Shown here piece after piece: positions 23,259 through 45,082 of a stretch of DNA of 64,000 nt. Position 1 is the stretch's first letter; every line of letters begins with the position of its first letter. Location: NCBI GenBank assembly GCA_963797915.1, contig CAWCRG010000017.1:299074-363073 (forward strand). The letters run 5' to 3'. The notes beneath the pieces were generated by a model. The model worked only from the letters and a program-made list of their open reading frames with translations, was not told the origin of the DNA and made no database searches. This stretch comes from Candidatus Sericytochromatia bacterium (GTDB taxonomy: Bacteria > Cyanobacteriota > Sericytochromatia > UBA7694). The position numbers and the translations under genes are program-made.

Positions 23259-23738
23259 ATGGCACTCGTTCTTAATTTAATTATTTTTCTGGGACTCCTG
23301 GCCATTGGCTACTTTTTTGGACAGCAAGCAGAAAAAAAACACTATCTCAGTATTAACGCCCGTGAAAAAGAATACCGCGCCCTGCCTTTGATTAATCTCA
23401 AAAATCCTGATTTTTTAGAGCAAGATGTAGAATTAGCGGTACTGGTCACCGGCAATATGGTGGTGGCCGTGGATTATTTTAAAGTCTTTGTGGCGGCCTT
23501 GCAAAATCTTTTTGGGGGCCATGTTACGCAGTACGAGCCCCTTGTGGATAGAGCCCGCCGGGAGGCGACGTTACGTATGCAGGAAGAAGCGCTGCGTCAC
23601 GGGGCCGACTTGGTTATGAATGTGCGTTTAGATACCAGCTTTTTGGGCGATATGCACAAACGCAAATCGGGTGTGGGCAGTATTGAGTCGATTGCTTATG
23701 GCACCGCCATTCGCTACAAAGCCAAGCAGCTGTCTTAA
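23259..23738 (+). CDS. Membrane-anchored YbjQ/UPF0145-like paralog
   Basis: N-terminal TM helix followed by a YbjQ-like domain (GGHVTQYEPLVDRARREA… AYGTAIR). Confidence 0.6.
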   Translation: MALVLNLIIFLGLLAIGYFFGQQAEKKHYLSINAREKEYRALPLINLKNPDFLEQDVELAVLVTGNMVVAVDYFKVFVAALQNLFGGHVTQYEPLVDRARREATLRMQEEALRHGADLVMNVRLDTSFLGDMHKRKSGVGSIESIAYGTAIRYKAKQLS

Positions 23739-24567
23739 TGCAGTACGTTCCGACACCCCTTCCCGAAGAAAATGTGAATGTCTCCAGGCGCTCGCCGCTT
23801 TGGGATTTGACCACTCTATTGGGTGGTGTGTTATTGATTTTGCTTTTGGTCTACTGGCTGCTTGGTTTTGCGGTGGATTATTATGTGCCGCGTCTTTCCA
23901 TTGAAAGAGAATCCCAGCTGGGGCAGTCTTTTTCAACGGCTTTTGAGCATGAGCTTACGGCGGTTCAGGCTCGAAAACAGGCCTACTTACAAAACCTAAT
24001 GAACGCTCTCGTCAAAGAAAAATACGGGAACACGCCGCATTTGGATTATCGTATTCATCTCAATCCAGAGCCCGAGTCCAATGCTTTTGCTTTTCCCGGG
24101 GGGCACATCGTGGTCATGGAGGGCCTGGTGGATCAGGCCAGTTCTGAAAATGAGCTGGTTTTTGTATTGGGCCATGAAATGGGACATCTGCATCATCGTC
24201 ACAATTTGCGTGCCATGGGGAGAAGCTTGATCTTCTCTATCATGACAGAAGCTGTTTTGGGGGGACCAGCGGCATTAGCAAAAATGTATCCAGCTTTACG
24301 CAGGGCTTGCAATATGGTTTTTCTCGGGCCCAGGAGCTAGAGGCTGACCTCACGGGGATTGATGCGAGTTATGCCCATTATCATCATGTGGGGGGGGCGC
24401 TAGATTTTCTGACGCGCCATCAAAAGGAAGCGGGCTTTGCCGGTTCTCAACTCGGACAGTATTTCGCCTCTCATCCCCATCCTGAGGGCCGCATTGAGCG
24501 ATTAGAAGCGCAGTTTGCCCAAAACCAGTGGACGTTAAAACCCATCAAACCCCTGCCCAATTTTTAG
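23738..24567 (+). CDS. M48-family zinc metallopeptidase, reading frame interrupted near 24290-24305
   Basis: HEMGHLHHRH (HExxH) lies in ORF 23738..24340. The downstream FSRAQELEAD motif typical of M48 lies in ORF 24307..24567 in another frame. A single frameshift joins them. Confidence 0.6.
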
Positions 24568-24579
24568 AGCTTTAGCAGC

Positions 24580-25275
24580 TTAGGTACCGATTACCGTGTC
24601 GGGCAAAATAACAAAAAAGAACACGCTGAGATAATGGCAGAGTGAACCCGCCATGACACACAAATGCCAAATAGCGTGGGCGTATTTAAATTTGTGGTCA
24701 AACAAGTAAAAGAGTGAGCCCAGGGTGTAAAAAATACCGCCTGTGCCTAAAAGGGCCAGGCCCTGCCAGCCAATACTGTAGTAAAGATCTTTCATAAAAA
24801 ACACACACATCCAGCCCATGGCAATATAAGCGAGGGTTGATAAGACGTCGGATTTATAAAAGAAAAAGACCTTGTATAACACACCAATCACCGCAATGAG
24901 CCAGATCAATCCCAACATAATCCATGATTTGGTGCTGTTGAGAGAAACCATTAAATAAGGCGTGTAGCTGCCCGCGATCAGCAAGTAGATGGCGCTGTGA
25001 TCCACAACTTCCAGGGCTTTTTTCCAGGGCACGTCTATGGCAAGTGATGTATGAAACAGGAGCGAGCCAATATACATGACAATTAACGTGGCGCTATAGG
25101 TGCTTGCCGCAAAGATTTTTGTTATCGAGTGGCTTTGCACTGCCAGGCCCACGAGGGTGCCAAAACCAATCAGACTCAACAGCAGCCCAAATCCGTGCAG
25201 GGTAATATTCAAAATTTCTTCTTGAACCTGTGATTCAAGCGGAGGGGTAAGAACAGGTACTGTCGATTTTTTCAT
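24580..25275 (-). CDS. Hemolysin III / PAQR family channel protein
   Basis: Seven-TM protein with LDHSAIYLLIAGSYTP and HAIWH motifs. Probable start is MKKSTVPV at 25275; the ORF extends further, to 25371. Confidence 0.75.
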   Translation of the reverse strand: MKKSTVPVLTPPLESQVQEEILNITLHGFGLLLSLIGFGTLVGLAVQSHSITKIFAASTYSATLIVMYIGSLLFHTSLAIDVPWKKALEVVDHSAIYLLIAGSYTPYLMVSLNSTKSWIMLGLIWLIAVIGVLYKVFFFYKSDVLSTLAYIAMGWMCVFFMKDLYYSIGWQGLALLGTGGIFYTLGSLFYLFDHKFKYAHAIWHLCVMAGSLCHYLSVFFFVILPDTVIGT

Positions 25276-25465
25276 ACTTATCATTTTATGCGTTGCGTCA
25301 TTTTTGTGCAAGTTTTTCTTTTGTAGTGCCCCTTTTAGCCAGATCTTAACCTGAAATGTGATACATTGCACAGTAAGGTTAAGAGAAAGTTATTAACCTA
25401 AAATTAACCTTGCCAGAGAATCCCTCCTATCTCATTAAACACAAAAGAAAGCCCCATGTTTAAAT

Positions 25466-26984
25466 ATGTTTAATCCACTTGTTTCCACGCCTAAAAACAC
25501 CCATACCTCTGACTTTAATGCCCAGGCGCGCGCTCCTTTTTTTGAGGCCTTAAAGGCTTATACCGAAAAAGATATGGTGGGTTTTCATACTCCAGGACAT
25601 AAATATGGAGCCGGTATTGATCCTGAGTTTCTGGACTTTGTGGGGCGAAAAACCTTTGAGATTGATCTTTGTGAACTGCCTGAAGTGGATAATCTCCATG
25701 ACCCGGAGCACGTGTTAAAAGAGGCGATGGAGCTGGCAGCCCAGGCTTATGGCGTGCAGCACAGCTTTTTTCTGGTGAACGGCTCCACCTGTGGAAACAA
25801 CACCATGGTGCTGACGGTATGCGATCCCGGAGACAAAATTTTGATTCCCCGAAATGTTCACAAATCGGTGATTAGCGGCATTTTGCTGAGCGGGGCTATT
25901 CCTGTTTATATTACCCCGACCTGGGATCGCGAGCTTGGAATCGACCATAACCTAACCCCTGAGGCGGTAGAGGCGGCTTTAAATCGTTACCCTGATGTCA
26001 AAGGCCTTTTTGTGGTGAACCCCACCTATTATGGCGTAAGTTCTGATTTGCGGCGCATTGCCGAGATCTGTCATCGCCACGGCAAGCCCCTGCTGGTGGA
26101 CGAAGCCCATGGCCCTCATTTGCACTTTCATGAAGACTACCCCTTGTCTGCAGTGGATGTGGGCGCCGATATGGTGGTGCAGTCTACCCATAAAATTATT
26201 GCGGGCATGACCCAGAGTTCAATGCTGCACATTAACGAAGGCCGTGTTAATCTCAATCGGGCCCGCAAAGTGTTGCAGTTAATGCAGAGTACGAGTCCCA
26301 ATTATTTATTGATGGCCTCTTTAGATACCGCTCGACGCCAGATGGCGCTGCACGGTCAAACCCTTTTGCAGCACGCCTTAGATATTTCTCGCTGGGCCCG
26401 TACCGAGCTCAACAAAATTCCGGGTATTCATTGTTTTGGCACCGAGCGCGTGGGCTTTCCGGGCCTGTTTGCCCTGGATGAAAGCAAGCTTACGATGAAT
26501 GTTTCTGACCTGGGAGTCTCTGGCTTTGATTTTTGTGACTGGCTCAATGAGCGCTATGGCATACAGTCAGAAATGGGCACCCTGACTAACGTTTTAGAAA
26601 TTGTCACTTTTGCCAATACCCATGACGAAATGGTTCGTCTGGTCGAGGCCGTGCGAGGAATTTCTCAGGACATACATACCCAGGGGATTCCCCGCCAGGC
26701 GCTGCCTCTACTTGCAGCAAATGGATCTGCCTGACTTACCTCAAGCTGTTTTAACCCCTCGTGAAGCCTTTTACGCCACGGTAGACACCGTGCCCTTTGC
26801 ACAATCGGCAGGCCGAATCTGTACCGAAGTCGTTTCTCCCTATCCACCAGGTATTCCGATTTTGGTGCCCGGCGAACGCATTACCCAGGAGCTGGTGGAC
26901 TATTTACAGTTGGTGTATCGCCACGGCGGGTTTATTAACGGGCCTGACGATGTCCGCCTCAACACCATTAAAGTGGTGGCTTAG
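25466..26984 (+). CDS. PLP-dependent Orn/Lys/Arg decarboxylase (SpeA/YaaO-like), frameshift near 26720-26730
   Basis: HTPGHK motif and the major domain in ORF 25466..26734. The C-terminal OKR_DC_1_C-like region (AVLTPREAFYA…) continues in ORF 26601..26984 in another frame. Confidence 0.75.
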
Positions 26985-27862
26985 AGCATCCAGCCGATGG
27001 CAAACAAGAAACTATAAATCAGCAGGCATTTGCCCGTTTCCCCCAGCATCGGATTGAGTGCGGGGTCTGCGTCTAAACGAAAGACTTTCAGCAAGTTGGG
27101 TATACAGAGTACAAACGTAAAGCTGGCAGCGAGGGAGTAGGGGTGCTTCTCGGGGGTGAAGTAGAAGATTATCCAGGGAATTAAACACGCGATCAAACAA
27201 CATAAAAAATACTCTATGCGTACGACATTTGCGCCAAAGCGAACCGCCAGTGTGCGCTTATTGCTTTCGGCATCGGTGAGACGGTCCCGCAGATTGTTTA
27301 CCGCCAGAATCGCTGTCGAAAAAAGCCCGGGTCCTAAAGAGGCTAAAAAGATAGCGCTGTTGAGTTGTAAGGTTTGCACATAATAGGTGCCGACGGTGGC
27401 GACCACGCCAAAAAACACCAGTACAAAAATATCGCCTAAACCGAGATAGGCCAGAGCGTAGGGCCCGGCGGTATAGAGCACGCCGCTAATGACCGACAAA
27501 CACCCTAAAATAAAGACCGGCCAGCCCCCGATATAGCTTAAATAGAGGCCTGGAACGGCTACCAGGGCAAACATGAGAATAAAAGCGTTACGCACGGTCT
27601 CAGGCGCAATCAGGCCCGCCTGAGTGACCCGTGTGGGGCCTAATCGCGTGCTTGTATCAGCCCCTTGTACAAAGTCGAAATAATCATTGGCAAAATTGGT
27701 GCCCAGCTGTAGTAGTAGGGACCCCACCAGGCAGGCGAGCATGGCCCACCAGGCAATACCGCTGCTTTTAAAGGCCATCGCCGTGGCAACCACCACGGGA
27801 GCTACCGCTGCACCCAGGGTTTTGGGCCGCGAGGCCATGAGCCAGAGTTTCCAGGTTTTCAT
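26981..27862 (-). CDS. menA: 1,4-dihydroxy-2-naphthoate octaprenyltransferase (UbiA superfamily)
   Basis: 293-aa polytopic membrane protein with NDYFD and DxxxD-like motifs (NNLRDRLTD); overall MenA-like. Confidence 0.7.
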   Translation of the reverse strand: MKTWKLWLMASRPKTLGAAVAPVVVATAMAFKSSGIAWWAMLACLVGSLLLQLGTNFANDYFDFVQGADTSTRLGPTRVTQAGLIAPETVRNAFILMFALVAVPGLYLSYIGGWPVFILGCLSVISGVLYTAGPYALAYLGLGDIFVLVFFGVVATVGTYYVQTLQLNSAIFLASLGPGLFSTAILAVNNLRDRLTDAESNKRTLAVRFGANVVRIEYFLCCLIACLIPWIIFYFTPEKHPYSLAASFTFVLCIPNLLKVFRLDADPALNPMLGETGKCLLIYSFLFAIGWML

Positions 27863-28380
27863 GGGTTGTTACTTTCTATTGAAACGTTATAGACCCATCC
27901 CAAAGCCGGGGTCCAGTTTACTTCGGCCAGACGCTTTGCTGACAAGAGGGGCGGATGCAGGTCAAGTTGTGCAGATAGCTCGCTCAAGAGCATTTCTATC
28001 GCCGAGGGCACAGCTGTTGGCATGGATATTGTCTCCTTGATGACTTGTGTTAAACGGAGCCCCTCGTCGTTGTAGGTCCATTGTTTCTGATCAGCGGCAA
28101 ACGTATACTCCCATTCTCCCCACAGGTTTTTATCCACCCACTGGCCTTGAATACCGATTAGTTGAATCCCCGTGCCGGTGTTTTCTTGCAGCATGCTGTA
28201 ATACGCTCTGGCATAAGCGCTCAGAGCATCTCGCTTCCCGTTTGTGCCTTTGCTTAAAAGGGGGAGTGGTGGGTCGGCGTCTCCTGGGGGATTTGTGTCG
28301 CTGGCATTTGGTAAGGCGCATCCAGAGTTTGCGCAGAGCAAAAGGCCCGCAAGCAGGTGAAAAAATATTTGCTTAATCAT
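27859..28380 (-). CDS. Lipoprotein, hypothetical
   Basis: Signal peptide with lipobox (LLCANSGC); stop overlaps the menA start. Confidence 0.5.
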   Translation of the reverse strand: MIKQIFFHLLAGLLLCANSGCALPNASDTNPPGDADPPLPLLSKGTNGKRDALSAYARAYYSMLQENTGTGIQLIGIQGQWVDKNLWGEWEYTFAADQKQWTYNDEGLRLTQVIKETISMPTAVPSAIEMLLSELSAQLDLHPPLLSAKRLAEVNWTPALGWVYNVSIESNNP

Positions 28381-28542
28381 TGTTTAATAAACTTAAATTG
28401 TTCTTACCTCTCATTTTAACAGGCAAAACAGCTACTTTCATTAACTTTTTTGATAAAGCGTCTAAAAAACGCTTGCAATTTAAGATTAAAAATATTAAGA
28501 TAAAGATAACAAAGTTAAATAAAGATTATGCAGGTTAAATAA

Positions 28543-28998
28543 ATGCGTTTAAGCACCGCCCAGAACACACAAAACTTAGGCACTTTTCACTTTCAGGACA
28601 CCGCTTTTAAATCCGGCGATAGCAGCAAGGACCGCCAGTCTGGTAACGCGATGTATGCGCCTTATGAGCAGGGTGATCAGGTTCATTTTCAAAACCGCAC
28701 TGCGCCTCTGCATTATGCAGCACCGGCTCAACCCTCTGAACTGATGCTTTTTATTGAGCGTTTACTTTCCCTCGATATTCGTTTTTATACCTCTATTGTT
28801 GCCACCGTATTGTTTGCGGTTTTTCTCCAGGCCTTCAGTGGCTTGAGCGTTGTGCTTGTGGCACTCATTGCCGTTCCCTTCTTTTTGGTGTGGTATGTCA
28901 TGAGCTTCTTTAACTTTCAACGGGTGATGGATAATGTAAACCATGCTCAGGCCATGCGATCTCGCCAGCACAGTATGCAGATTCCTGCTACTTTTTAA
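28543..28998 (+). CDS. Hypothetical membrane protein
   Basis: 151 aa with two hydrophobic helices in the C-terminal half; followed by a terminator. Confidence 0.4.
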   Translation: MRLSTAQNTQNLGTFHFQDTAFKSGDSSKDRQSGNAMYAPYEQGDQVHFQNRTAPLHYAAPAQPSELMLFIERLLSLDIRFYTSIVATVLFAVFLQAFSGLSVVLVALIAVPFFLVWYVMSFFNFQRVMDNVNHAQAMRSRQHSMQIPATF

Positions 28999-29021
28999 AC
29001 CCTTTAAACTTTGATTTAACC

Positions 29022-29057
29022 TTGCAAGACCGTTTTTAATAACGGTCTTTTTTTTTG
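29022..29057 (+). terminator. Rho-independent terminator
   Basis: Stem caagaccgtt…aacggtctt followed by a T9 run. Confidence 0.45.
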
Positions 29058-29163
29058 TGTAAAAAAATAGGTGTTTACAATAAGTATTTTGTTGACTTTA
29101 TGTAAACAAATGACTATAATAAAATTAGAACACGAAAAATCGTTTTCAAAGGAGAAATTATTT

Positions 29164-30306: not shown

Positions 30307-30317
30307 GGAGTTGTAAA

Positions 30318-31436: not shown

Positions 31437-32623
31437 TGCCCCGAAGAAAAGCCAATGGCGCAGGGAAAACACCGTTTTCTCTGCGCTTGCGGGCCCTGCG
31501 CAAACAAAGTCAGCTGAAAATGGATCAGCTGGCCGAGGCCGTGGGTGTTTCTAAATCCTTTATTTCATTATTAGAGTCGGGGGGGCGACAGCCCTCTCGT
31601 GAAGTGGTCTTAAATTTATCGGAGGCGCTGTTTTCCGCGCTCTCTGATCATGAGGACGATGGACACGATCAACTGCGCGATGAGTTATTAATTTTGGCTG
31701 GGTTCATGCCCGTTAACCCCCGTGCAGTTAGTGCTTATCGTGATACGTTGCTGGTGTATCAACAAGCCCTTGCCGAAAATCCTGACGATTTTCGGTTGTT
31801 TTCGCGTTGGTTGCTGGCCCTGATTCGTGCAGAACGTCAGGAAGAGGCCTACACCCATATTCAAGAGGGCCTTCAACGTTTTCAAGAAACCGCCTATATG
31901 CAGTGTCTTTTGGCACACCTGGAGTTAAGCAAAGGCAATTACGAAGCCGCTTTAATCAATCAAGAAAGTGCGCTCAAGCACGTTCGGCAGCAACCGGCTC
32001 CCCATTTAACCGAAGCAGATCTCATCTTTAATCTGGGTGCTATCCATTTTTTGATGGGCCATAAAAGTATGCGTGAAGGCGATCAAAAAATCGCTTTAAG
32101 TCATTATGAGCAGGCCATTGAAAACATGGAAGCATCGTTAGCTCTGGCTGAATCAGATATTTATGTGCTCGACGAATATGCCCGCCTATTGTTTAACCGC
32201 GCCTACCTCACCCAGGAGAATGCTCATTGGGAACAAACCATACAGGCTTATCGTCGTGTACTTATAGACCCAAAGAAAGCAGCCCTGGGAGTGAGTGCGC
32301 TGCGAGAGTCAGCTGCGTTTTTAGCCCATGCCTATACGCAAAACCAGGATTTTGCTACCGCAGAGCTTACCCTTGGTTTGCTGAGCGCTTTTCAAGCAGA
32401 ATACTGGTTGGTGAACTATTTACAAGCCTGTCTTTATACGGCGATGTTTAAATCTTCACAACAGGACCCCTGGCTAGACCGGGCTTTGCAGGCCTTAGCC
32501 GAGAGCCTGAAGCAGTCACCAGACCGGGTGCGAGAGGAAGCCCTGCACGATCCCGACCTACAGTTGCTTCGCGAGTGCCGCGCCCAAGACTTTAACCGAT
32601 TACTTAAGGAGAAAACCCGATGA
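31436..32623 (+). CDS. XRE-family HTH transcriptional regulator with TPR-like C-terminal domain
   Basis: HTH segment LRKQSQLKMDQLAEAVGVSKSFISLLESG. The C-terminal region is helical and repeat-like. The start overlaps the upstream stop. Confidence 0.6.
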   Translation: MPRRKANGAGKTPFSLRLRALRKQSQLKMDQLAEAVGVSKSFISLLESGGRQPSREVVLNLSEALFSALSDHEDDGHDQLRDELLILAGFMPVNPRAVSAYRDTLLVYQQALAENPDDFRLFSRWLLALIRAERQEEAYTHIQEGLQRFQETAYMQCLLAHLELSKGNYEAALINQESALKHVRQQPAPHLTEADLIFNLGAIHFLMGHKSMREGDQKIALSHYEQAIENMEASLALAESDIYVLDEYARLLFNRAYLTQENAHWEQTIQAYRRVLIDPKKAALGVSALRESAAFLAHAYTQNQDFATAELTLGLLSAFQAEYWLVNYLQACLYTAMFKSSQQDPWLDRALQALAESLKQSPDRVREEALHDPDLQLLRECRAQDFNRLLKEKTR

Positions 32624-34398
32624 ACAAGCACCCTTTAATCGCTACCGCATTCTTACTTTCATTGACCCTCTACACTGCCTGTAGCGCCCAAAACACTCCC
32701 TCTACCGTCAGCCCCAATCCCTCTGTTGATGCCAATGGTAATATTACTCCTTTTCCCAAGGGCCCCAAAGAACTCGACGGTATTATGCTGCCGAATGACG
32801 CATCACTTAACGCTGGTAATGGTCTGGGTAGTCGCAAAAGCAATGACGGCCTCATAAACGATAGCGCCGCAATGGTAGGCATAGAAGCGCCTGCTGCGCC
32901 GCCGATGGCAGAGTTTGCCCCGGGCGACGATGCCGCGGATGATTTCTCTACACCGGCTCCTCAGCCTACACCCACTCCGCAAAGTGAGGAGACTCCTTCG
33001 GATAACTCGCCCGAAACTTCGGTAGTGGAAGCGCAAAACTTTTTTTATTTTTCTTATGATGACTCAGCCAGTACGGCGGGTGTAGAGCAAACCAAGTTTG
33101 CCCTTGAGCGCAGTAGCCCTGTGCTTCCCAATCCTTCCTGGGTAAGGCCCTGGGAGTTTCTCAATTACGAAACCTTTACCCCGCAAAAGCTGACGACGCT
33201 AGGTACTTTTCAAGTGGCCATGGGTGTCTGGCAACACCGTGTACCCGGAAGTAATGATCCCAATACGCTCGCCGAGGAGCAAAGTGCTTATGATCTGGGG
33301 ATTCAGGTGAAAACGCCTGAAGTGAGTAAGGCAGATCGGCAAAATATCGTCTTGACGCTTCTACTGGATGTTTCTGGATCGATGAAAAGCCCCTCGGTGC
33401 AATTGAGTGAGTCGCAGCAGGTTCCTGACCTTTTAGCGGTGGCTAAAGCGGGCTTGCGCAAGTTGCCTGAACAACTCAAAGCCGGTGATGTGGTGAATTT
33501 GGTCACGTTTTCGAATGCGGCGACGACCCGTTTGGAGTCCTGGGCTTATACCGGTGAGGATACCCAGTGGCAATCCGTTGTATCGGCGTTAAATACCGAA
33601 GGGGGCACTAACCTTAATATTGGATTAGAGAAGGCCTACGCGCTGGCGCAGAAAACCTATAACTCTGCCAAAACCAACCGGGTGATGATGTTGACCGATG
33701 CTTTTGCCAACCAGGGGCAGGTGAATGCCGATATTGTGGCGCGCAATACCCAGATTAATAATGCCGAAGGCATTTACTTTTCGGGTCTGGGCCTTGGCGC
33801 TGATTTTAATGAGGGCTTTTTAAACACCCTTACCGAAGCCGGTAAGGGAAGCTATACCGCTTTAATGAGTACCACTGATGCCGAGCGTGCGTTTGGTGAG
33901 CGTTTTATTTCACTCACCCAAATTGCGGCCCGTGACGTGCGCTTTCGCCTGGATTACCCTGCTGCCTTGCAGCGTACGATCTCTGCAGCGGAGCAATCCT
34001 CTCAGGTGGCCAGCGAGGTGGACCCCATCCACTTTGCAGCCAATAGCTCTCAGTTTTTCTTAGAGCGCTTTCAGGCCGATGGTGAGGGTAACGTTAACGG
34101 AAGTATCAAGTTGACGATTGCCTATACCGATCCCGTCACCGGAGCAGAACGCGAAGAGGTGCAGTCGCTACCCCTAAGCGACCTGTTAAATCAGGAGCTA
34201 CCCAGTATTAAAGATGCCCGTATGGTGACGTTGCTGACCCAGCTGATTCAGGGCAAGGTGTCTCCAGCGGCAGCGCGTGTAGAAATGGATGCACTGCTTA
34301 ATACCCATAGCAGTGCATTGGCCAACACCTATAAAAAATATATTGAAACCTGGTTGTCTTTAGCTCAGGGCAATCAAGACACTGTTTCAGAACCTTAA
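32620..34398 (+). CDS. von Willebrand factor A domain lipoprotein
   Basis: Lipobox LTLYTAC. A MIDAS-containing vWA core (VLTLLLDVSGSM… TNLNIGL… MLTD). ATGA overlap with the upstream gene. Confidence 0.65.
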   Translation: MNKHPLIATAFLLSLTLYTACSAQNTPSTVSPNPSVDANGNITPFPKGPKELDGIMLPNDASLNAGNGLGSRKSNDGLINDSAAMVGIEAPAAPPMAEFAPGDDAADDFSTPAPQPTPTPQSEETPSDNSPETSVVEAQNFFYFSYDDSASTAGVEQTKFALERSSPVLPNPSWVRPWEFLNYETFTPQKLTTLGTFQVAMGVWQHRVPGSNDPNTLAEEQSAYDLGIQVKTPEVSKADRQNIVLTLLLDVSGSMKSPSVQLSESQQVPDLLAVAKAGLRKLPEQLKAGDVVNLVTFSNAATTRLESWAYTGEDTQWQSVVSALNTEGGTNLNIGLEKAYALAQKTYNSAKTNRVMMLTDAFANQGQVNADIVARNTQINNAEGIYFSGLGLGADFNEGFLNTLTEAGKGSYTALMSTTDAERAFGERFISLTQIAARDVRFRLDYPAALQRTISAAEQSSQVASEVDPIHFAANSSQFFLERFQADGEGNVNGSIKLTIAYTDPVTGAEREEVQSLPLSDLLNQELPSIKDARMVTLLTQLIQGKVSPAAARVEMDALLNTHSSALANTYKKYIETWLSLAQGNQDTVSEP

Positions 34399-34461
34399 AA
34401 TGCTTGGGAGCATTTTGCCGTATACTATGAGGGTGAAAGGCCTTTCTGGTGATGGCGTGTC

Positions 34462-35160
34462 ATGATCTTTAACTTTTTTCGGCGCAATAAACCTCAGTCT
34501 CCTGCTTCAGCTGAGCAATTTCCTTTTTTTGCTTCTAAAAAAGAGCTAGAAGGCTCTAAGGCCTTGCCTTTGCTGAATGAGGTTGAGGCTGAACTGCTGC
34601 GTTTACAAGGGCTAGGCGAGAAGCAGTTGCTTACACCCGGTGATCAAAATCGCTATACAGAACTTCAGCAGCAGCATCGTGAATTGCTGGGTAGTGGTCA
34701 GCTTAACGCACCCTTATCCACAAGTCTGCTGGTGTCAGAGCAAGTTCAGCCGGGTGATCTTGCCGATGAGTGGATGCGACCTACGGCAGCGGCCCACGTT
34801 TTATTGGTGGAGGACGACCGCGATTTATCTGAAATGCTCAATTTTTGTTTGCACCGTATTACCACTCAGGTCACGGTATTGCACGACGGAAACGCCGCAG
34901 TGGAATGGATCGCTCAAAACGATCCTGTGGATTTAATTTCTTTGGATCTGATGCTTCCCCGAAAAGATGGTTTGCAGCTGCTGCATTATATTCGTGCCCA
35001 GCCCGCCTGGGAAAAAGTGCCGATTTTGGTCATGAGTTCTAAATCTGATGAGTCTACGGTACAGACAGTCCTTAATGCTGGTGCAAATGTTTACCTCACC
35101 AAACCCATTCAGCCCGATGCTTACCTGGCACAGGTTCAAAAGCTGATGGCTGACCAATGA
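34462..35160 (+). CDS. Protein with C-terminal response-regulator receiver (REC) domain
   Basis: LLVEDD acidic pocket, phospho-acceptor Asp in ISLDLMLP, conserved Ser (VMSSKSD) and Lys (YLTKP). The N-terminal ~110 aa are of unknown function. Confidence 0.6.
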   Translation: MIFNFFRRNKPQSPASAEQFPFFASKKELEGSKALPLLNEVEAELLRLQGLGEKQLLTPGDQNRYTELQQQHRELLGSGQLNAPLSTSLLVSEQVQPGDLADEWMRPTAAAHVLLVEDDRDLSEMLNFCLHRITTQVTVLHDGNAAVEWIAQNDPVDLISLDLMLPRKDGLQLLHYIRAQPAWEKVPILVMSSKSDESTVQTVLNAGANVYLTKPIQPDAYLAQVQKLMADQ

Positions 35161-35173
35161 GTAGCTGATCACG

Positions 35174-36235
35174 ATGGGTACGCCATTGCAATGGTTGCTG
35201 GTGGTTGTTTTTTTTGATATTTCCCTCATTTTTGCCTTGTTGCTGTGGCGTTTGGTTTTACGCACGCAATCAAAGCGCAAGCTCGCCTTTATTAAGCAGT
35301 GGCGCTCCGTGTTGATGGGTTATGCCATGGGGCAACCCTTAACCGCTTTACCCCTGCTTAAACCCCGAGATCATAGCTTGTTCTTTATGTTGTGGAACGA
35401 CACACAGCAGCAATTGGTGGGCTCTGCCAGCCCGCGTTTAAACCAGTTGATTCAAGACCTCCAGCTGGTGCCAGAGGTTCTCAGACGTTTGCGTCGGGGC
35501 AATTTGCGAGAGCAGATGGTGGCCTGTCAAACTGTGGGCCATCTCGAAACTTTACAAGAAGCGTGGCCCTCGCTGGTGCATTTGGCTTTTGAAGGCCATG
35601 ATCGACTGGCTTTTTTTGCTTTGCAGGCTTTAATTCAGATGAGTCCAGAGGCTGCGTTACCGGTGATTTTAGATATTATGAGCACCGGTGGAGCAGCGCC
35701 TGCACGACTTTTGGGGCTGTTTCGTCGCTACCCATCTGGCGCTCTGGTGGAACCTCTCCTGGGGTTTCTACAAGAAGCCCTTTATGCGCATGATCTTAAG
35801 CGATCTTTGCATATTATTGCGCTCTTGGAAGTCCTGCCTTTTCCTTCGGTGTTGCCCACCATGCGCCAAATTTTGGTAGAAGCGACGGATCCAGAGCTTA
35901 TTGTCAGTTGTTTGCAGGTGATGACAGATTTACACGACCCCTGGTGTCTTGGCTTGAGCTTGCCCTATTTAAACCATCCTGATTGGCGGGTGCGTCAACA
36001 CGCGGTTGCTGCTCTTGGCAAAGTTGCCCAGGGTCCACAGGTTCCTGTACTGCTAAAGGGTTTAGAAGACGACTCGTCCTGGGTGGCTCAGGCAGCCTTA
36101 GAAGCCCTTTGGGAACTTCCCGGATTTCGCCGAGAGAAGTTACAGCAACTCAGCCGTGAGCATGGAAGTGCTCGGGTCAGAGAGCGTCTTCAGCAGTTTT
36201 TTGCAGAGCAGCAGGTGTTCACCCACCATGCTTGA
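35174..36235 (+). CDS. HEAT/PBS-lyase-like repeat protein with N-terminal membrane anchor
   Basis: N-terminal TM helix, then repeated helical HEAT-like units (…DWRVRQHAVAALGKV…). Confidence 0.5.
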   Translation: MGTPLQWLLVVVFFDISLIFALLLWRLVLRTQSKRKLAFIKQWRSVLMGYAMGQPLTALPLLKPRDHSLFFMLWNDTQQQLVGSASPRLNQLIQDLQLVPEVLRRLRRGNLREQMVACQTVGHLETLQEAWPSLVHLAFEGHDRLAFFALQALIQMSPEAALPVILDIMSTGGAAPARLLGLFRRYPSGALVEPLLGFLQEALYAHDLKRSLHIIALLEVLPFPSVLPTMRQILVEATDPELIVSCLQVMTDLHDPWCLGLSLPYLNHPDWRVRQHAVAALGKVAQGPQVPVLLKGLEDDSSWVAQAALEALWELPGFRREKLQQLSREHGSARVRERLQQFFAEQQVFTHHA

Positions 36236-37607
36236 ATACTTTTTTACCGTCTATTTTGTGTTGCTCAACAGCAGTTACTTACTGCTCAATTTAATTGGGG
36301 CCTGCAGCATCATTCGCCGTCGGCCCACTTATGAGTTATCTCGTTTGCCGATGGACTACGGGCGTTTTGAGCCTGCTGTCAGCGTTTTAGTGCCCGCTTA
36401 TAACGAAGAACAAACCATTGTAAGCGCCTTACAATCGGTATTACAGCTGGAGTATCACTGCTATGAAGTCCTGGTGATTAACGATGGATCGAAGGATCAA
36501 ACCCTCCAGGTATTAACGACTCACTTTGAACTACAGCCCATGCCTCTGCCTCCTGTTGAGGGGTTATCGACGGCGGAGGTCAACGGTTTTTATCGCTCGC
36601 GCCGCTATCCTTTTTTGCGTGTCATAGATAAGGCTAACGGGGGCAAGGCAGACGCATTGAATGCGGGTGCAAATCTCGCCCGGTATCCATTGGTGTGTTG
36701 TCTGGACGCCGACTCGATTTTACAGCGCGATAGCTTACGTGATGTGGTGCAGCCTTTTATTGACGGGGTTGATGTGGTTTGTTCAGGCGGAACGGTGCGG
36801 GTGGCGAATGGCTCTGCGATTCGGGACGGATTTTTAGATGCTGTGGGCATCTCAAATCATCCGCTGGCTTTGTTTCAAACGGTGGAATACCTGCGCGCGT
36901 TTTTGTTTGGTCGCGAAGGCTGGTCGCCTTTTAACGCCTTGCTGATTGTGTCCGGTGCTTTTGGCGTTTTTGATCGCGAAGTTTTACTTGAAGTGGGCGG
37001 ATATCGCCGACAAACCATTGGAGAAGACATGGAGCTTACGGTGCGTTTGCACCGGTTTATGTCCCAACGAAAACGGCCTTACCGAATTCAGTTTTTGGCG
37101 GAGCCTGTGTGTTGGACCGAAGCCCCTGAAGATTTAGGCACCTTACGCAATCAGCGTATTCGCTGGCAGCGTGGTTTGTTGGAGAGCTTATGGCTCAACA
37201 AAAAACTGCTGTTTTCTCCCCGTGGAGGCTTTGCGGGCAATGTTGCCTTTCCCTTCTTTTTGATTTTTGAGGCCGTTGGCCCACTGATTGAAGTCGCTGC
37301 TTATCTCTTTATGTCACTGGGCGTATTATTCGGATATGTTGACACAGACAGCCTGGTGCTGTTTACGATAGCCTCTATCGGTATGGGGATGACCATGTCG
37401 ATTAGTGCGCTACTCATGGAGGAAGTTTGTTTTCATATGTACCCGCGTACCCGTCAGGTCATGGTGCTCATTGCTTTTGCACTCTTAGAAAACCTGGGGT
37501 ATCGCCAGTTGAACTCATGGTGGCGTTTGCTGGGGTTATACCAATGGTTGACGGGCCAACAGCAGCAGTGGGGAGTGATGAAGAGAAAGGGAAATGAGCG
37601 CGCCTGA
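36228..37607 (+). CDS. Family 2 processive glycosyltransferase (PgaC/IcaA/NodC-like beta-glycan synthase)
   Basis: DGSKDQT (DxD-like), LDADS, and QRIRWQRG (QxxRW) motifs with flanking TM helices. ATG at 36228 overlaps the upstream stop. Confidence 0.7.
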   Translation: MLEYFFTVYFVLLNSSYLLLNLIGACSIIRRRPTYELSRLPMDYGRFEPAVSVLVPAYNEEQTIVSALQSVLQLEYHCYEVLVINDGSKDQTLQVLTTHFELQPMPLPPVEGLSTAEVNGFYRSRRYPFLRVIDKANGGKADALNAGANLARYPLVCCLDADSILQRDSLRDVVQPFIDGVDVVCSGGTVRVANGSAIRDGFLDAVGISNHPLALFQTVEYLRAFLFGREGWSPFNALLIVSGAFGVFDREVLLEVGGYRRQTIGEDMELTVRLHRFMSQRKRPYRIQFLAEPVCWTEAPEDLGTLRNQRIRWQRGLLESLWLNKKLLFSPRGGFAGNVAFPFFLIFEAVGPLIEVAAYLFMSLGVLFGYVDTDSLVLFTIASIGMGMTMSISALLMEEVCFHMYPRTRQVMVLIAFALLENLGYRQLNSWWRLLGLYQWLTGQQQQWGVMKRKGNERA

Positions 37608-37623
37608 AGTTTAAGCGGCTCTG

Positions 37624-38154: not shown

Positions 38155-38155
38155 G

Positions 38156-39375: not shown

Positions 39376-39418
39376 GGGTCAAGCTCCTCTCGAGAGGGTT
39401 TGATCTGGAGCTGCTCCA

Positions 39419-40372
39419 TTAATGTGAGCTGTAGCCCCACGGGAGCCGAGCGTTCCCAGGGAATTTTGAGGGGGCGCAAAGCATAGTGGGGTAATGTTGA
39501 CGGAGTTGTTCCCAGAGACAGCCGGGTTCAAACTCCACCACATAGAGCGGAAGATCCACGGGGTAATGCTCGGGAAGTGTTAACACTCCGGGATATAAGC
39601 TGTCGAGTACCAGCACCGCATTGTCCTTCCAGTCCATCTCTAATAGCCAGCCGCCCATGGCTCCGGTCGCAATTAAGGCATAGTTTGGCGACGATTCGGG
39701 GCTCCAGTGCCGTAACCAGCGGGAGGCCAGTTGCTGGAGTTGTTGATGCTTTTTCTGGGCTCTGCGTAAGACATTGTTGCCCTGAATGGGGGGCAGCGCT
39801 AATGCTATCCATTCTGCATCTTGTACACTCTGTGTCGTACTGAGGAGCATGGGGTCGAGCAATAAAATAACCGGCTGGCGCAGGTATGCTGCCAGGGCAA
39901 AGGCTTCCTGCACGTTGTTTTGTACATGACTCAGGTGAGAAGGCATTAAATGGGGAAAGGGGAACCCGCTCCCGGGCCAGGCGTTTTGGAAACAGGCATA
40001 GCCGTAAGGGAGGGTAGAGGCACCGCGGTATTCCGGTGCTTGATAGAGCACCACCGCATAAACACAGGGAATCTCCTGCTGAAAAAAGTGAGCTAAGCCA
40101 TGTTGCACACTGAGAAAGTCGCTGTAATTGCTGCTAATAAACGGAATGTCTCCGAGCTGCCCTACCCCCTGAGCCATTGACAGCGCCTCAGTGGGCGTTT
40201 GGGTTTGCAAACAGATCCCGTGATGTTGTTGAAAACGGGTGAGTCCTTCATTGAGGAGCAGTGACTGCATGGGACTGGGACTTCCAAAATAATGGCGACA
40301 GCCGCTTTTAAGGACTGCTTCAATACACATTTGAAAGCCGTTGTAGACGGCAGCGTGTTGTTCAACAATCAT
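39419..40372 (-). CDS. 2-oxoacid:ferredoxin oxidoreductase alpha subunit (divergent, short)
   Basis: N-terminal AVLKSGCRHYFGSPSP resembles the PorA AGCRFFAGYPITP segment. At 317 aa it is shorter and more divergent than typical PorA. Confidence 0.5.
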   Translation of the reverse strand: MIVEQHAAVYNGFQMCIEAVLKSGCRHYFGSPSPMQSLLLNEGLTRFQQHHGICLQTQTPTEALSMAQGVGQLGDIPFISSNYSDFLSVQHGLAHFFQQEIPCVYAVVLYQAPEYRGASTLPYGYACFQNAWPGSGFPFPHLMPSHLSHVQNNVQEAFALAAYLRQPVILLLDPMLLSTTQSVQDAEWIALALPPIQGNNVLRRAQKKHQQLQQLASRWLRHWSPESSPNYALIATGAMGGWLLEMDWKDNAVLVLDSLYPGVLTLPEHYPVDLPLYVVEFEPGCLWEQLRQHYPTMLCAPSKFPGNARLPWGYSSH

Positions 40373-40683
40373 GGGTTAGTAGACTGCCCGTTCCAGAACT
40401 TGTGAAATCTTAGACTCAGACCAAAGACATAACCCTTGATGTTTTTTTGCGGAAAAGCGGGCGCAATAAATGCGTCATCTGGACAAATATCAACGCAATG
40501 CATGCAGTTAATACAATATTCAGGCCACTGCATTTGCACCGGAAGAAAACCCTGAGCATTTGCCTCTGTGTGGACGCCTGCCTCTTCAAAAAGTGCGTTG
40601 GGACAGACATTGATGCACAAGTTACAGCCTTTACATTGTTCGCTGTCTAACTGGACGGTGTTCAGATGTTCTGCAGTTCTCAT
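40369..40683 (-). CDS. 2x[4Fe-4S] ferredoxin (oxidoreductase delta subunit)
   Basis: Two CxxCxxCxxxCP motifs (CKGCNLCINVCP; CINCMHCVDICP). Overlaps the alpha gene start. Confidence 0.7.
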   Translation of the reverse strand: MRTAEHLNTVQLDSEQCKGCNLCINVCPNALFEEAGVHTEANAQGFLPVQMQWPEYCINCMHCVDICPDDAFIAPAFPQKNIKGYVFGLSLRFHKFWNGQSTNP

Positions 40684-40798
40684 AAGGCTATTGTCGCATA
40701 TTTGTCAGGGGGATCACAGTTTTTATGTGCGCCAATGGCTGGTGTTTCATCTATATAAGTGTATATAATACATTTATTAAGTCTCAAGGAGTTTTATT

Positions 40799-43304
40799 AT
40801 GTCAGATCAATCCAGAGAGCGGGATCTTGTATTGGCCCCCAATGAGTATGCCTTTATTTCGGATCAAACCAAAGGCAATATTAATGTGTATGTGGGCCCC
40901 TACAAAACCAGTTTGGCCAATACAGATCAGCCGGTGTTTTTTGATGAGCAGAGCAAACGCTTTGATCGCTGTGGCTTAGAGCAGGCCACGCGGGTTTTTG
41001 CCACCGCCCCTGAAGGATGGTATATCACCCTTAAAAACCCTGCCGGTGACCAAATGCAGCCTAAAAATGGCACGGTTAATAATTTGCCCGATCTGCAGGT
41101 GGGGCATAAGATTAATTTACCCGGACCGGTTTCTTTTGGCTTATGGCCCGGACAAATGGTGAGGGTACTTAAGGGGCATCACCTGCGCTCTAACCAGTAT
41201 TTACTGGTGCGCGTCTATGACGAAGCCTCAGCCCGCAGTAACTGGACACGGGCCGTGATGAAGCTTCAGGGCAATGTGCCCGAAGAGGGGCTGAATCTGA
41301 AAAGCGCTGCTGAAGAAACGTTAAATCTTGGACAGGAAATGGTGATTCGAGGCACCGAGGTTTCTTTTTATATTCCCCCGACCGGTATTGAAGTTGTTAC
41401 TGACAGGCAGGGCGGGTTGGTGAGAGAAGCGGTAACGTTGGAGCGACTTGAGTACTGCATTTTATTGGATGAAGACGGCAATAAACGCTATATTCAGGGG
41501 CCCGATGTGGTCTTTCCTGAGCCCACAGAACGTTTTGTGGAGCGGCAAGTGAGCGGTGTGCTCTGTAAAAAGTTTCGGGCTGTCGAACTCAATGAAAATA
41601 GCGGCATTTACGTGAAGGTGATTGCGCCCTATACGTCTTCTGACGGCGATAAAGTAACCCAGCATGGCGTGGGCGACGAACTGTTTATTACGGGTAAAGA
41701 TCAGATGATTTATTTTCCGCGCCCGGAACATGCGGTGATTAAGTATGGTGCCCAGGATATTCACTATGCGGTGGCCATTCCTGCGGGCGAAGGGCGTTAT
41801 GTGATGGAGCGTAACACCGGGCAGATTAGACTGGTAAAAGGGCCCCACCATGCTGCTGCCTGACCCCCGGCGAGAGGTCATGATACGGCGCGTACTGACC
41901 ACGCCCCAGGTGCGTCTGTGGTTTCCGGGCAATGCCGAAGCGATGGAGTATAATCACCAATTGCAGGAACTCTTAGCCGATGAAAAGGGAGCTTCGGTAT
42001 TGCCCCTTTCTGTACCCCTTGCGCCGACGGGTGGGCCTGCGGATGCAAAATCTCGCAGCGCTGCCAAATCCTCAAAAAGAGAAGTTACTCCCGCGTTGGC
42101 GGGTGAGGACTTTCATCGCAATACGCAGTATACGCCACCTCGGACCATTACCTTAAACACCAAGTATGATGGGGCGGTCGCGGTGTCCATCTGGACTGGC
42201 TACGCGGTGCTCGTGGTAAGTAAAACCGGAGAGCGTAAAGTCGTGGTGGGTCCACAAACCTACCTGCTGGCGTACGATGAAGCCCTGGAGCCCATGGCTT
42301 TATCTACGGGATCTCCCAAAAGCGAGTCTCAATTGCTTAAAACCGTTTACTTGCGGGTGTTGCACAATAAAATCTCCGATAAAATTCGTGTGGAAACGCG
42401 CGATCTGTGCGAGGTAGAGATTCAGCTTTCTTATCGGGTGAACTTTGAGGGCGATTCCCAATACTGGTTTAATGTGGAGAACTATGTCAAGTTTTTGACG
42501 GAGCATATGCGTTCTCGCATTCGCAACGCGGTCAAGCAGGTGGGTGTGGAAGCTTTTTATAGTCAGGCGGCTGATATCTTGCGCGATACCGTGCTGGGAG
42601 TCAGTGACGGACAACGGACCGGCTGCACCTTTGCTGAAAACGGCATGCGGGTGTATGACGTCGAGGTGCTCAATGTCACGCTGGTGGACCAAAGCGTGGA
42701 GCAATTGTTGATTGCCGCGCAACGGCAAGGGGTTGAGCAGACCTTGCAACTCAACGCCGAACGGCGCAAGCTGGACTTTGTGCAGGCTGAAGAGGTCGTC
42801 AAGCGAGAAATGTCTGAAGCCCGCATTCTCACGGAGACTCAGCATCATGATATAGAGCTTGAACGCTTACACCGTCAGCAGGCCTTACAATTGCAGCAGT
42901 TAAAAAGCCAAAGTGAAGCAGAACAAACCCGCCTGCTCGGCGAATTGGCCAATCAAGAGCAAATGAGTGCGGTGCATGAGGCTGAGTTAATGCGAGAGCG
43001 GGTGCGTTTAGAGCAGGAGTTGGCCATGGCTCACGAACGGACGCAGCAGCGTCTGATGCTGATGCAGGGTGAGGTAGAGGCGATGGCCCGCAAAGCAGAA
43101 GCCATTTCACCTGACCTGATTGCTGCTTTACAGGCTTTTGGCGATAAAGCGCTGGCGGAGCGCATGGCGGCATCGATGGGGCCACTCGCCATTCTCGGCG
43201 GCAATAGCGTGGCCGATGTCTTGTCCCAGCTGCTGGGCGGTACCCAGCTCGAACACCTTGTGCGCAAGGCGATGCCCCTCATGGGCCATATTACTGAAGA
43301 CTGA
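40799..43304 (+). CDS. Major vault protein (MVP) homolog, single gene with apparent frameshift near 41845-41865
   Basis: The N-terminus (LVLAPNEYAFISDQTKGNINVYVGPYKTSLANTDQPVFF) parallels the first MVP repeat of eukaryotic MVP ([38 protein letters not shown]). The C-terminal ORF parallels the MVP shoulder/cap-helix region (…VDQSVEQLLIAAQRQGVEQTLQLNAERRKL…). Combined length is about 835 aa. Confidence 0.6.
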
Positions 43305-43390
43305 AACCTCAGAGGCGTTGGGAATCGGGTATAATGGGTAGTCTTCATACATGATGTATGAAAAAGTATACACCACAGAACAGGTATCCC

Positions 43391-44325
43391 ATGACCGACG
43401 TCTCTCCCATTATCTCAATTACGAATTTATCCAAGGTCTACGCCTCAGGCTTTCAAGCCCTTAAAGCCGTGGACCTGGATATTCATCGCGGGGAGATTTT
43501 TGCGCTCCTCGGTCCCAATGGTGCGGGTAAAACCACCCTGATTAGTATTATTTGCGGCATTGTAAATGCTTCTACCGGTGAAGTGCTGGCCGATGGCCAC
43601 TCGGTATTTAAAGACTATCGACAAGCGCGTAGCAAGATCGGCCTGGTACCCCAGGAGCTTACCAACGATATGTTTGAAACGGTGTGGAATACGGTAAAGT
43701 TTAGCCGTGGGCTCTTTGGTAAAGCGCCCAATCCGGCCTTGCTCGAAGATATTTTGCGCCGTTTGTCACTGTGGGACAAAAAAGATCAGCAAATTCGCGC
43801 GCTTTGGGGGGCATGAAGCGACGGGTGATGATCGCCAAGGCGCTGTCTCATGAGCCCATGATTTTGTTTCTGGATGAACCCACTGCGGGTGTTGACGTGG
43901 ATTTGCGTAAAGATATGTGGGAAATGGTGCATCAGTTACGCAAAACCGGTGTCACGATTATTTTAACCACTCACTATATGAAGAAGCTCAGGAAATGGCT
44001 GACCGTATTGGTTTTATTCGCAGCGGTGAAGTCTTTTTAGTGGAAGAAGAAAAAGGCGCTGATGCAAAAATTAGGCAAAAAGCAATTGACGTTGCAATTG
44101 GCTGAACCCCTGTCAGAGATTCCAGCGACTTTACAAAGCCTGCCCCTTACGCTCTCCGAAAATCATATGCAGTTGGTATATACCTTTGATGCCCAAACGC
44201 AAAAAAAGGGCATTGCCTCGCTTTTACGGCAATTGTCCGATGAAGGCATTGATTTTCAAGATCTGTACACCAGTGAAAGCTCCCTCGAAGATATTTTTGT
44301 TAAATTGATTGGAACCTCAGTATGA
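43391..44325 (+). CDS. ABC transporter ATP-binding protein, broken into four frames (three frameshifts)
   Basis: Walker A (GPNGAGKTT), signature (LSGG-like at a G6 run), Walker B (ILFLDEPT) and H-loop (TTHY) are spread over ORFs 43358..43816, 43771..44040, 43917..44105 and 44062..44325. Confidence 0.6.
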
Positions 44326-44331
44326 ACCTTT

Positions 44332-45082
44332 ATGCGGTTAAGGCCATTTACGGCTTTGAATTGGCGCGCTTTTTTGCACCCTTTTTCAGAGCATTGCTTC
44401 CCCGGTGATTTCGACGTCGCTCTATTTTATTGTTTTTGGTTCGGCCATTGGTTCGCGTATGACCGATATCGAAGGCACGACTTATGCCGCTTTTATTGTG
44501 CCCGGTTTGATCATGCTATCGGTGCTGACAGAAAGTCTCTCTAACGCTTCTTTTGGTATTTATATGCCCAAGTATTCAGGAACAATCTATGAAATCCTCT
44601 CTGCACCCATTTCGGCCTTTGAAATTGTATTGGGTTATGTGGGCGCTGCGGCCAGTAAGTCGGTCATGCTTGGCTTTATTATCCTGGCCACCGCGCGCTT
44701 GTTTGTGGATTTTCAGATTATGCACCCGTTTTGGATGCTCGCCTTTTTACTACTGACCGCGCTGACCTTTAGCCTCTTTGGCTTTATTATTGGGGTGTGG
44801 GCAGATGGCTTTGAAAAACTGCAAATTATTCCCCTGATGGTGATTACCCCGCTGACCTTTTTGGGAGGAAGCTTTTACTCGATCAAAATGCTGCCCCCCT
44901 TTTGGCAAAAGGTCACGCTGTTTAATCCGATTGTGTACCTGATTAGTGGCTTTCGCTGGAGCTTTTACGGTGTGGCAGATGTGAGCATTGGACTCAGTCT
45001 TGGCATGACGGCGCTGTTTTTGTCAGTGTGTTTGGTACTGGTGTGGCTGATTTTTAAAACAGGGTATAAGATTAAAAATTAA
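44332..45082 (+). CDS. ABC-2 family permease, frameshift near 44365-44395
   Basis: The N-terminal [18 protein letters not shown]… is in one frame. The remainder (ORF 44405..45082) has six hydrophobic helices. T6 and T5 runs lie at the junction. Confidence 0.55.

Follow-up and report, generated by a model that had tools for sequence, protein, structure and literature searches.

Single-base frameshifts in eight genes of a Sericytochromatia contig are probably consensus errors of the assembly rather than gene decay

Host-restricted genomes, such as those of Sodalis, Mycobacterium leprae and Shigella, combine frameshifts with nonsense mutations and larger deletions, an expansion of IS elements and relaxed selection. 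A second source of split genes lies in sequencing: indels in nanopore consensus sequences fragment the gene calls of metagenome-assembled genomes (MAGs), chiefly below ~40x coverage, and truncated gene calls are the readout of the IDEEL test (PMC9262707, Sereika et al. 2022). We analyzed a 64-kb window (the whole stretch of DNA considered here, part of a 363,073-nt Sericytochromatia contig), in which about 11 1-nt indels split 8 of ~62 genes, and we consider it very likely, from comparisons of sequence, that these frameshifts are consensus errors of the assembly and not gene decay.

The split genes were established with Pfam matches to the pieces, tblastn with intact orthologs and nucleotide alignments to relatives (Table 1). 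These approaches agreed that all eight genes named in the first-pass annotation are split between frames, but some of the positions moved: the M48 site, placed at ~24295, was ~40 nt off, that of the decarboxylase shifted from ~26725 to 26711-26714, and that of the major-vault-protein (MVP) homolog from ~41855 to 41840-41842. Moreover, three of the eight genes fall outside the range of 23738-45082 that had been assigned to them. In the acetyltransferase paralog, the frame change was read from the paralog alignment, a three-frame translation and an alignment with homologous proteins. A codon-usage scan of the entire window detected frame switches at the eight known genes and no further broken gene among the ~62, and an Rfam scan of the window gave 0 matches.

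Table 1. Split genes and other features, in window coordinates
Feature	Coordinates	Strand	Pieces, domains or composition	Lesion
Hexapeptide acetyltransferase paralog	10480-11204	-	71.5% nt identity to copy at 11386-12072 (self-blastn)	Frame changes about 10900-10930 (approximate site); +4 vs paralog, +1 in frame terms
Intergenic C-run	22795-22801		C7 in window, C9 in same-strain L094, C8 in relative L095	
M48 peptidase gene	23738-24567	+	200-aa and 86-aa ORFs, PF01435 on both	-1 in T4G6 tract 24255-24264; T5G6 in relative L093 (alignment)
Orn/Lys/Arg decarboxylase	25466-26984	+	422 aa and C-terminal-domain piece; OKR_DC_1 and OKR_DC_1_C on separate pieces	+1 at 26711-26714, CTG to CTTG (pinned against L089)
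Major-vault-protein (MVP) homolog	40799-43304	+	Split 354 + 484 aa; Pfam MVP_shoulder, Vault_3	+1 at 41840-41842, G2 to G3, inside A4G3C4 at 41836-41846
ABC transporter ATPase	43391-44325	+	Pfam ABC_tran on pieces	Three: -1 at 43803-43806, C of LSGG Ser codon gone, between T3 and G6; -1 at 43979/43980, ATCGAA to ATGAA; +1 at 44043-44056, G within run that is A7/A8 in relatives
ABC-2 permease	44322-45082	+	Pfam ABC2_membrane	-1 at 44375/44376, C missing after T6 run 44370-44375
Homopolymer conflict	45853-45862		T4-C-G5 in window, G4 in L092	
Relic	46187-46609	+	FtsZ-like 3'-end copy (46187-46349), then ABC ATPase fragment (about residues 161-232) fused to permease scraps	TGG to TGA stop, large internal deletions, many non-synonymous changes
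Repeat protein	47803-48718	-	66-nt (22-aa) units at 48023-48497 (Tandem Repeats Finder)	Unit 48109-48172 is 64 nt, not 66, and shifts frame: CCCAAAGAC to CCCAAGAC, TTAGCCAGGG to TTCACAGGG
Immunity-like gene	61270-61906	+	Split 99 + 121 aa, downstream of 912-aa ORF; in low-GC, duplicated toxin-cassette region	+1 within 61537-61562 (alignment to L007), probably at A4T3 tract 61543-61549

A pseudogene is expected to show a mixed spectrum of lesions and relaxed selection, and the eight genes show neither. Their lesions are exclusively 1-nt indels, with 0 nonsense substitutions and 0 out-of-frame deletions of more than 1 nt. Repaired ORFs ran without internal stops to 505 (decarboxylase), 834 (MVP), 311 (ATPase), 253 (permease), 276 and 211 (immunity-like) aa, and each repaired length equals that of the ortholog, apart from one case of 276 compared to 275 aa. 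The other within-gene indels relative to close relatives were all multiples of three (30, 9, 3, 9, 3 nt).

As the first-pass annotation had proposed, we compared these genes with orthologs, and all nine independently assembled related contigs were unbroken at every site that each covers. These relatives share ~75-80% (L001, L006), ~82% (L004, L005) or 92.6-96% (L089, L090, L091, L093, L095) nucleotide identity with the window. The M48 peptidase is intact, at 272-279 aa, in L001, L006 and L093; the decarboxylase, at 490-505 aa, in L001, L006 and all cluster members among the matches listed; MVP, at 828-834 aa, in L001, L004 and L005; and the ATPase, at 311-316 aa, in L001, L004 and L091. Two further copies are cut at contig ends, and both are unbroken where they cover the sites: MVP in L091, cut at the contig start, reads through the lesion site, and the ATPase in L005, cut at the contig end, spans the first two lesion sites. 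In other metagenome contigs, the permease was unbroken in 80 of 80 loci and the ATPase in 66 of 66 evaluable loci (146/146 copies together). Two homologs, P0241 (211 aa, 89% identity) and P0242 (207 aa), cover both pieces of the immunity-like gene, while the N and C termini of the repeat protein both match the L004 homolog, from different window frames.

Exact look-ups of repaired proteins yielded one match, the permease, which is identical in 253 of 253 residues to P0291 (run SRR26831655); its source is a relative with 92.6% nucleotide identity (~93%), not the same strain. The repaired decarboxylase, MVP, M48, ATPase and immunity proteins had no exact match in the collection, and the M48 query carried L where the close relative has F. 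An exact DNA pattern over the permease site had no match in JGI metagenome contigs, and a protein-based scan of metagenome contigs returned relatives with at most 86% identity and none of the same species.

Sequence 3' of each frameshift is under strong purifying selection, with no relaxation in the window lineage. Synonymous and nonsynonymous codon differences downstream of the frameshifts numbered 8 and 3 in the M48 gene, 11 and 2 in the decarboxylase, 44 and 5 in MVP, and 20/1, 7/2 and 24/10 in the three ATPase segments. The permease differs from its P0291 ortholog by 50 synonymous and 0 nonsynonymous codons, 47 and 0 of them downstream of the frameshift. Constraint on these segments equals or exceeds that on the more variable of the intact control genes (synonymous/nonsynonymous 56/24, 38/33, 47/21, 23/10) and is comparable to that on the most conserved controls. 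With L001 as outgroup, we counted 28 window-specific and 19 L004-specific amino-acid changes, and 277 and 265 nucleotide changes, respectively.

Same-strain contigs from ERR12040027 (L088, L092, L094) differed from the window by 2 mismatches and 2 indels over 7.1 kb, away from the eleven sites, and both indels concern the length of a G/C homopolymer (G5/G4, C7/C9). One of the two lies within a methyltransferase gene, which is intact in the window (295 aa) and split into 97 + 202 aa by the G4 of L092, a contig otherwise 100% identical to the window over 1484 nt. Homopolymer lengths in these data are thus unstable. None of the ERR12040027 contigs found by look-up covers any of the eleven sites. 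Six truncated products were found (422, 484, 354, 200, 141 and 225 aa), and these are on record solely for the 363,073-nt NCBI/ENA contig, while several intact window proteins are also present in Logan assemblies. For the VWA protein, the truncated decarboxylase and the acetyltransferase, exact look-up gave no encoding contig on record.

Assembly error is therefore favored by three observations together: the lesions are 1-nt indels only, repair yields full-length conserved proteins, and the ERR12040027 contigs conflict with the window in homopolymer length. The frameshifts would be residual single-base consensus errors from an indel-prone read set, probably of long reads at modest coverage (a presumed technology, for ERR12040027 as well), and the affected genes would be functional in the organism. 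We infer that each of the eleven sites, taken singly, is such an error.

The sequence contexts of the lesions are in part those of homopolymer errors. The first-pass annotation had noted that several lesions sit at homopolymer runs, and indeed a run of at least 4 bases lies within or adjoins 6 of the 11 sites (background 14%, P = 0.002) and a run of at least 6 adjoins 3 of 11 (background 2.1%, P = 0.001); 4 or 5 of the 11 are non-homopolymer sites. The window has ~40 runs of 7 or more bases, and no frame break occurs at any of them, so that a simple model of error growing with run length does not fit. The window has 7 junctions of a T-run, with or without C, and a G-run of at least 5, and 3 of these carry 3 of the 13 indel discrepancies, which looks like a k-mer-specific calling error. 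Two other motifs were considered and set aside. Three deletions have lost the C of a T-C-G (nominal P ~3e-5), but this is a remark on context only, as the window contains 276 copies of TWTCG, nearly all of them undisturbed, and an apparent link to CCWGG (Dcm-type) motifs, based on CCAGG near three sites, was dropped after the sites were pinned elsewhere.

In one respect the distribution of the lesions departs from what is expected of an assembly artefact, namely an even spread of errors along the contig: 5 of the 11 are packed into the 2.6 kb at 41840-44375, within the vault-protein/ABC operon (P ~0.003-0.005 under a uniform error rate). A local drop in coverage or a mixture of strains is a candidate cause of this cluster, which could alternatively have arisen by several hits to an operon that was dead already.

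We considered that consensus errors might account for the lesions in the M48, decarboxylase, MVP, ATPase and permease genes, but that at least one of those in the acetyltransferase paralog, the repeat protein and the immunity-like gene might be real. We regard this mixed case as unlikely, although there are grounds for it in each gene. All three are accessory genes, in which real decay would be unsurprising; the acetyltransferase copy is without a close ortholog (best match 68%), and its lesion, at +4 nt relative to the paralog, lies in a non-homopolymer CGAACGAAC context; the repeat protein has two adjacent irregular units, the 64-nt unit and one of 60 nt (48173-48232) that is in frame, which suggest real divergence of the repeats; and the immunity-like gene is located in a low-GC, duplicated region of toxin cassettes. 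Nevertheless, in all three genes each half is still open, and conserved, in its own frame, and the lesions are again of a single base, with no nonsense mutation alongside.

A real and very recent burst of frameshifts in a free-living Sericytochromatia, caused by a mutator or a sudden relaxation of selection, centered on the vault-protein/ABC-exporter operon and preceding other signs of decay, appears improbable to us. About equally improbable is genuine, very recent pseudogenisation with a burst of frameshifts as in host-restricted or mutator bacteria, in which the MVP-ABC operon was hit five times after its function was lost. The clustering of five lesions in one operon would be accommodated by such decay, a real relic and a rearrangement adjoin this operon, and real indels favor homopolymers too. 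Against this, none of the ~11 lesions is a nonsense mutation, the window lineage has no excess of non-synonymous changes (in the permease, 50 changes are synonymous and 0 alter an amino acid), and no transposase-type domain was found among the ORFs scanned against Pfam. Furthermore, the C lost between T and G runs, as at 43803, and the G gained in an A-run are not products of slippage, the same read set conflicts in homopolymer lengths elsewhere, and relatives at 93-96% identity are intact. Thus, of the two explanations offered by the first-pass annotation, long-read-type indel errors are supported, and pseudogenisation of the host-restricted type is not, since the genes have 1-nt indels alone, no nonsense mutations and continued selection.

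The relic at 46187-46609 is genuinely decayed, and its structure recurs in the independent contig L092. It shares with the frameshifted genes its origin, in the same ABC genes, and its genome, but a stop created by substitution, large deletions and many amino-acid changes are found in the relic alone. It had been argued that the ATPase fragment in this remnant, which reads tatatcgaag where the gene has lost a base, was a sign that at least one lesion may be genuine. This does not follow: every ortholog keeps the same ancestral base, and an ancestral C in the remnant is expected under mutation and consensus error alike.

Programmed recoding, by ribosomal frameshifting or transcriptional slippage, or phase variation at contingency loci is effectively refuted by the unbroken orthologs, none of which requires a frameshift at any site (all being single ORFs where covered). 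Some sites do touch short runs (G6, T6, A5), but the tracts are short and the contexts heterogeneous, with shifts in both directions. Three events would have to be invoked for one gene, and the genes belong to metabolism or housekeeping, not to the surface or restriction classes. For the A_AAA_AAG-like run of the ATPase, programmed frameshifting was rejected specifically, as orthologs continue through this run without a break.

Our analysis of the sequence points to an ordinary origin for the frameshifts, which would then not be a real biological feature, and its main value is one of caution. About 1 gene in 8 here would be misannotated, either as a pseudogene or as a pair of short genes, and conclusions that this Sericytochromatia lineage is decaying, is host-restricted or has lost the vault-protein/ABC operon would be spurious. 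Once repaired, the sequences would be usable as full-length proteins, and junctions of T-runs with G-runs may serve to flag other errors in this assembly.

Compared to host-restricted genomes, the window is similar in having many frameshifted genes, some of them at homopolymers, but its interrupted genes show none of the nonsense mutations, larger deletions, IS expansion or relaxed selection found in those genomes. Compared to the errors described in long-read MAGs, for a technology that is itself deduced in our case, the window differs in that several sites are non-homopolymer, long runs (7 bases or more) appear to be correct and lesions cluster within 2.6 kb. It resembles these errors in that single-base indels split conserved genes and are enriched at or near homopolymers, in that assemblies of the same material differ in homopolymer length, and in a density of about one lesion per few kilobases.

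The frameshifts that the first-pass annotation had proposed in eight genes are present in the sequence, with about 11 lesions in 8 of some 62 window genes. For five of these genes, encoding an M48 peptidase, an Orn/Lys/Arg decarboxylase, an MVP homolog, an ABC ATPase and an ABC-2 permease, we found Pfam domain or family halves on adjacent ORFs in different frames, and intact orthologs on the related contigs L001 and L006 match each gene as at least two HSPs in differing frames; the remaining genes shared with these contigs, ~14 kb of coding DNA, match as single HSPs. Both pieces of the immunity-like gene are covered by homologs of 207-211 aa (P0241, 89%; P0242), and the acetyltransferase copy (10480-11204, minus strand), a 71.5%-identical paralog of the hexapeptide transferase at 11386-12072, switches frame near 10900-10930. 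The N-terminus and C-terminus of the repeat protein are both conserved relative to its homolog on the related contig L004, yet are in different frames, and one unit in its array of 66-nt units is 64 nt. Codon-usage segmentation of the whole window recovered the same frame switches and no further ones. Thus, split domains, multi-frame HSPs and segmentation, along with the homolog alignments, confirm the observation. Three of the genes lie outside the range given for them (23738-45082), and some positions were 15-40 nt off.

When the VWA-domain protein (32620-34398) was searched against a single genome from each GTDB species, the best match was L001, from a Candidatus Sericytochromatia MAG (68% aa identity). 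Gene order in L001 follows that of the window over 23687-45079, apart from a difference in gene content at ~34400-37600, where the window has response-regulator, HEAT-repeat and GT2 glycosyltransferase genes and L006 (~78% identical) has TPR and CAP-domain genes. L006 also carries a 404-aa C39_2 peptidase (8571-9785), flanked by the HlyIII gene and the decarboxylase, that the window lacks (24580-25466). Closer relatives were reached via the protein collection: L004 and L005 (~82% nt identity), and a 92.6-96% relative represented by contigs L089, L090, L091, L093 and L095 (runs SRR26831655 and SRR26831685). Lesions were pinned by alignment to these closer sequences, and in this comparison with orthologs, which the first-pass annotation had advised, every one of them was unbroken at each site it covers. 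All remaining intragenic indels between the window and these relatives are multiples of three (30, 9, 3, 9 and 3 nt).

Lesions, same-strain homopolymer conflicts (window vs ERR12040027 contigs) and relic segments
Feature	Position	Detail
M48	24255-24264	T5 to T4, adjoining G6
Decarboxylase	26711-26714	CTG to CTTG
MVP	41840-41842	G2 to G3
ATPase, first site	43803-43806	C of LSGG serine codon lost between T3 and G6
ATPase, second site	43979/80	C of ATCGAA lost
ATPase, third site	44043-56	G inserted within A7/A8 run
Permease	44375/76	C after T6 lost
C-run, intergenic	22795-22801	C7 vs C9
G-run	45853-45862	G5 vs G4; methyltransferase intact in window (295 aa), split 97 + 202 aa in Logan
FtsZ-like gene 3'-end copy	46187-46349	~80% identical to 50768-50930
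Deleted ABC ATPase/permease fragment	46349-46606	TGA stop

Judging from the sequence data, these frameshifts are very probably consensus errors, because of the lesion spectrum, selection, where broken forms occur, a second same-strain assembly and the contrast with a nearby relic. Thus, of the two explanations offered in the first-pass annotation, assembly indel errors are favored over pseudogenisation. The lesions are exclusively 1-nt indels, with no nonsense substitutions or larger out-of-frame deletions in the affected genes, and removing the indels yields open frames at ortholog length (505, 834, 311, 253, 276 and 211 aa). Taking L001 as the outgroup, we count balanced numbers of changes specific to the window and to L004 (28 vs 19 amino acids, 277 vs 265 nucleotides). 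Downstream of the frameshifts, synonymous/nonsynonymous differences from the 93-96% relative are 47/0 (permease), 44/5 (MVP), 11/2 (decarboxylase) and 8/3 (M48), and 20/1, 7/2 and 24/10 after the three ATPase frameshifts. Conservation in these segments equals or exceeds that of the more variable controls among the intact genes and is comparable to that of the best-conserved ones; the repaired permease equals P0291, from the 92.6-96% relative, at 253/253 residues, although 50 codons differ synonymously. Were the eleven events genuine, every one of them would need to be of extremely recent origin.

By exact-sequence look-up, the window proteins are on record (NCBI and ENA) for one 363,073-nt contig; of the truncated products queried, the six with a record are listed for that contig only, and several intact window proteins are present in Logan assemblies too. 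Across 80 metagenome loci, every one of the 80 permease copies is unbroken, and so are all 66 evaluable ATPase copies. Same-strain Logan contigs (L088, L092 and L094, run ERR12040027; 99.9-100% match over 7.1 kb lying outside the eleven lesion sites) show only two indel differences from the window, both in homopolymer length; thus, homopolymer length is unstable in data from this sample, at ~1 conflict per 3.5 kb, close to the frameshift density. Nanopore-type consensus indels are well documented to fragment gene calls in MAGs below ~40x coverage (PMC9262707); the read technology behind this assembly is one that we infer.

Several lesion sites are not in homopolymers, and no frame break falls at any of the ~40 window runs of at least 7 bases. 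The window has only seven junctions of a T-run, an optional C and a G-run (at least 5), and three of these (24255-24264, 43802-43811 and 45853-45862, all plus strand) hold 3 of 13 indel discrepancies, which suggests a context-specific, possibly k-mer-specific, base-calling error. In T-C-G context, the C is removed in three of the deletions.

The relic at 46187-46609 is real: behind a copy of the FtsZ-like gene 3' end, an ATPase piece is fused to permease scraps, a structure reproduced independently in L092. It carries large deletions, many amino-acid replacements and a stop codon created by TGG to TGA, an internal contrast to the frameshifted genes that points to error in the latter. The first-pass annotation had reasoned that an ATPase lesion may be genuine since this remnant retains the missing C; the argument is uninformative, because the C is ancestral, kept by the remnant and all orthologs, and is expected under both error and mutation. 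L004 and L091 have the C39 peptidase directly after the ABC-2 permease; at this junction a class-I methyltransferase gene (45225-46112, minus strand) is inserted in the window, flanked by the two relic segments of the table, and 45083-46609 is a real rearrangement scar that L092 reproduces.

Real lesions could exist in the accessory genes (acetyltransferase paralog, repeat protein and immunity-like gene). Five lesions cluster in 41840-44375 (P about 0.003-0.005 if lesions were spread uniformly); a local coverage drop or strain mixture could account for this, and repeated hits in a dead operon would give the same picture. Genuine genome-wide pseudogenisation is unlikely: lesions of other kinds are missing and downstream changes are almost only synonymous. 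Programmed recoding is excluded because the orthologs are unbroken. In practice, with consensus error preferred, polishing should come first and the affected genes then be annotated as intact.

The 834-aa MVP homolog (MVP_shoulder, Vault_3) lies directly 5' of the ABC ATPase/ABC-2 permease pair (40799-45082), a synteny conserved in Sericytochromatia relatives (L001, L004, L005 and L091). At least 1468 proteins match it at E<=0.001, from many phyla judging from the named matches, and the permease family is unusually conserved (73-86% aa identity over the 80 metagenome loci). The repeat array (48023-48497) has ~7 copies of 66-nt (22-aa, MGTEGKPPKDAQISQGQKPQPQ) units and the L004 homolog has fewer, of ~54 nt (18 aa); therefore repeat unit and copy number vary between close relatives. 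Tandem 7TMR-DISM histidine-kinase paralogs (671 and 664 aa) occupy 14614-18704, with 76.9% nt identity over 1.9 kb.

A low-GC (38-43%) block at 58462-63073 contains a 912-aa ORF with no Pfam match, the immunity-like gene and a second ORF (62093-63073); segment 60008-60164 recurs at 62030-62181 (86% identity). At 61165-61175, 30 nt ahead of the 912-aa ORF stop, the window has T4 and the 87%-identical contig L007 (1-20) has T3, L007 starting too near the site to show which upstream frame is correct. L007 also has a homolog of the immunity-like gene near a Fic-domain gene. The low-GC block resembles a polymorphic-toxin/orphan-cassette arrangement.
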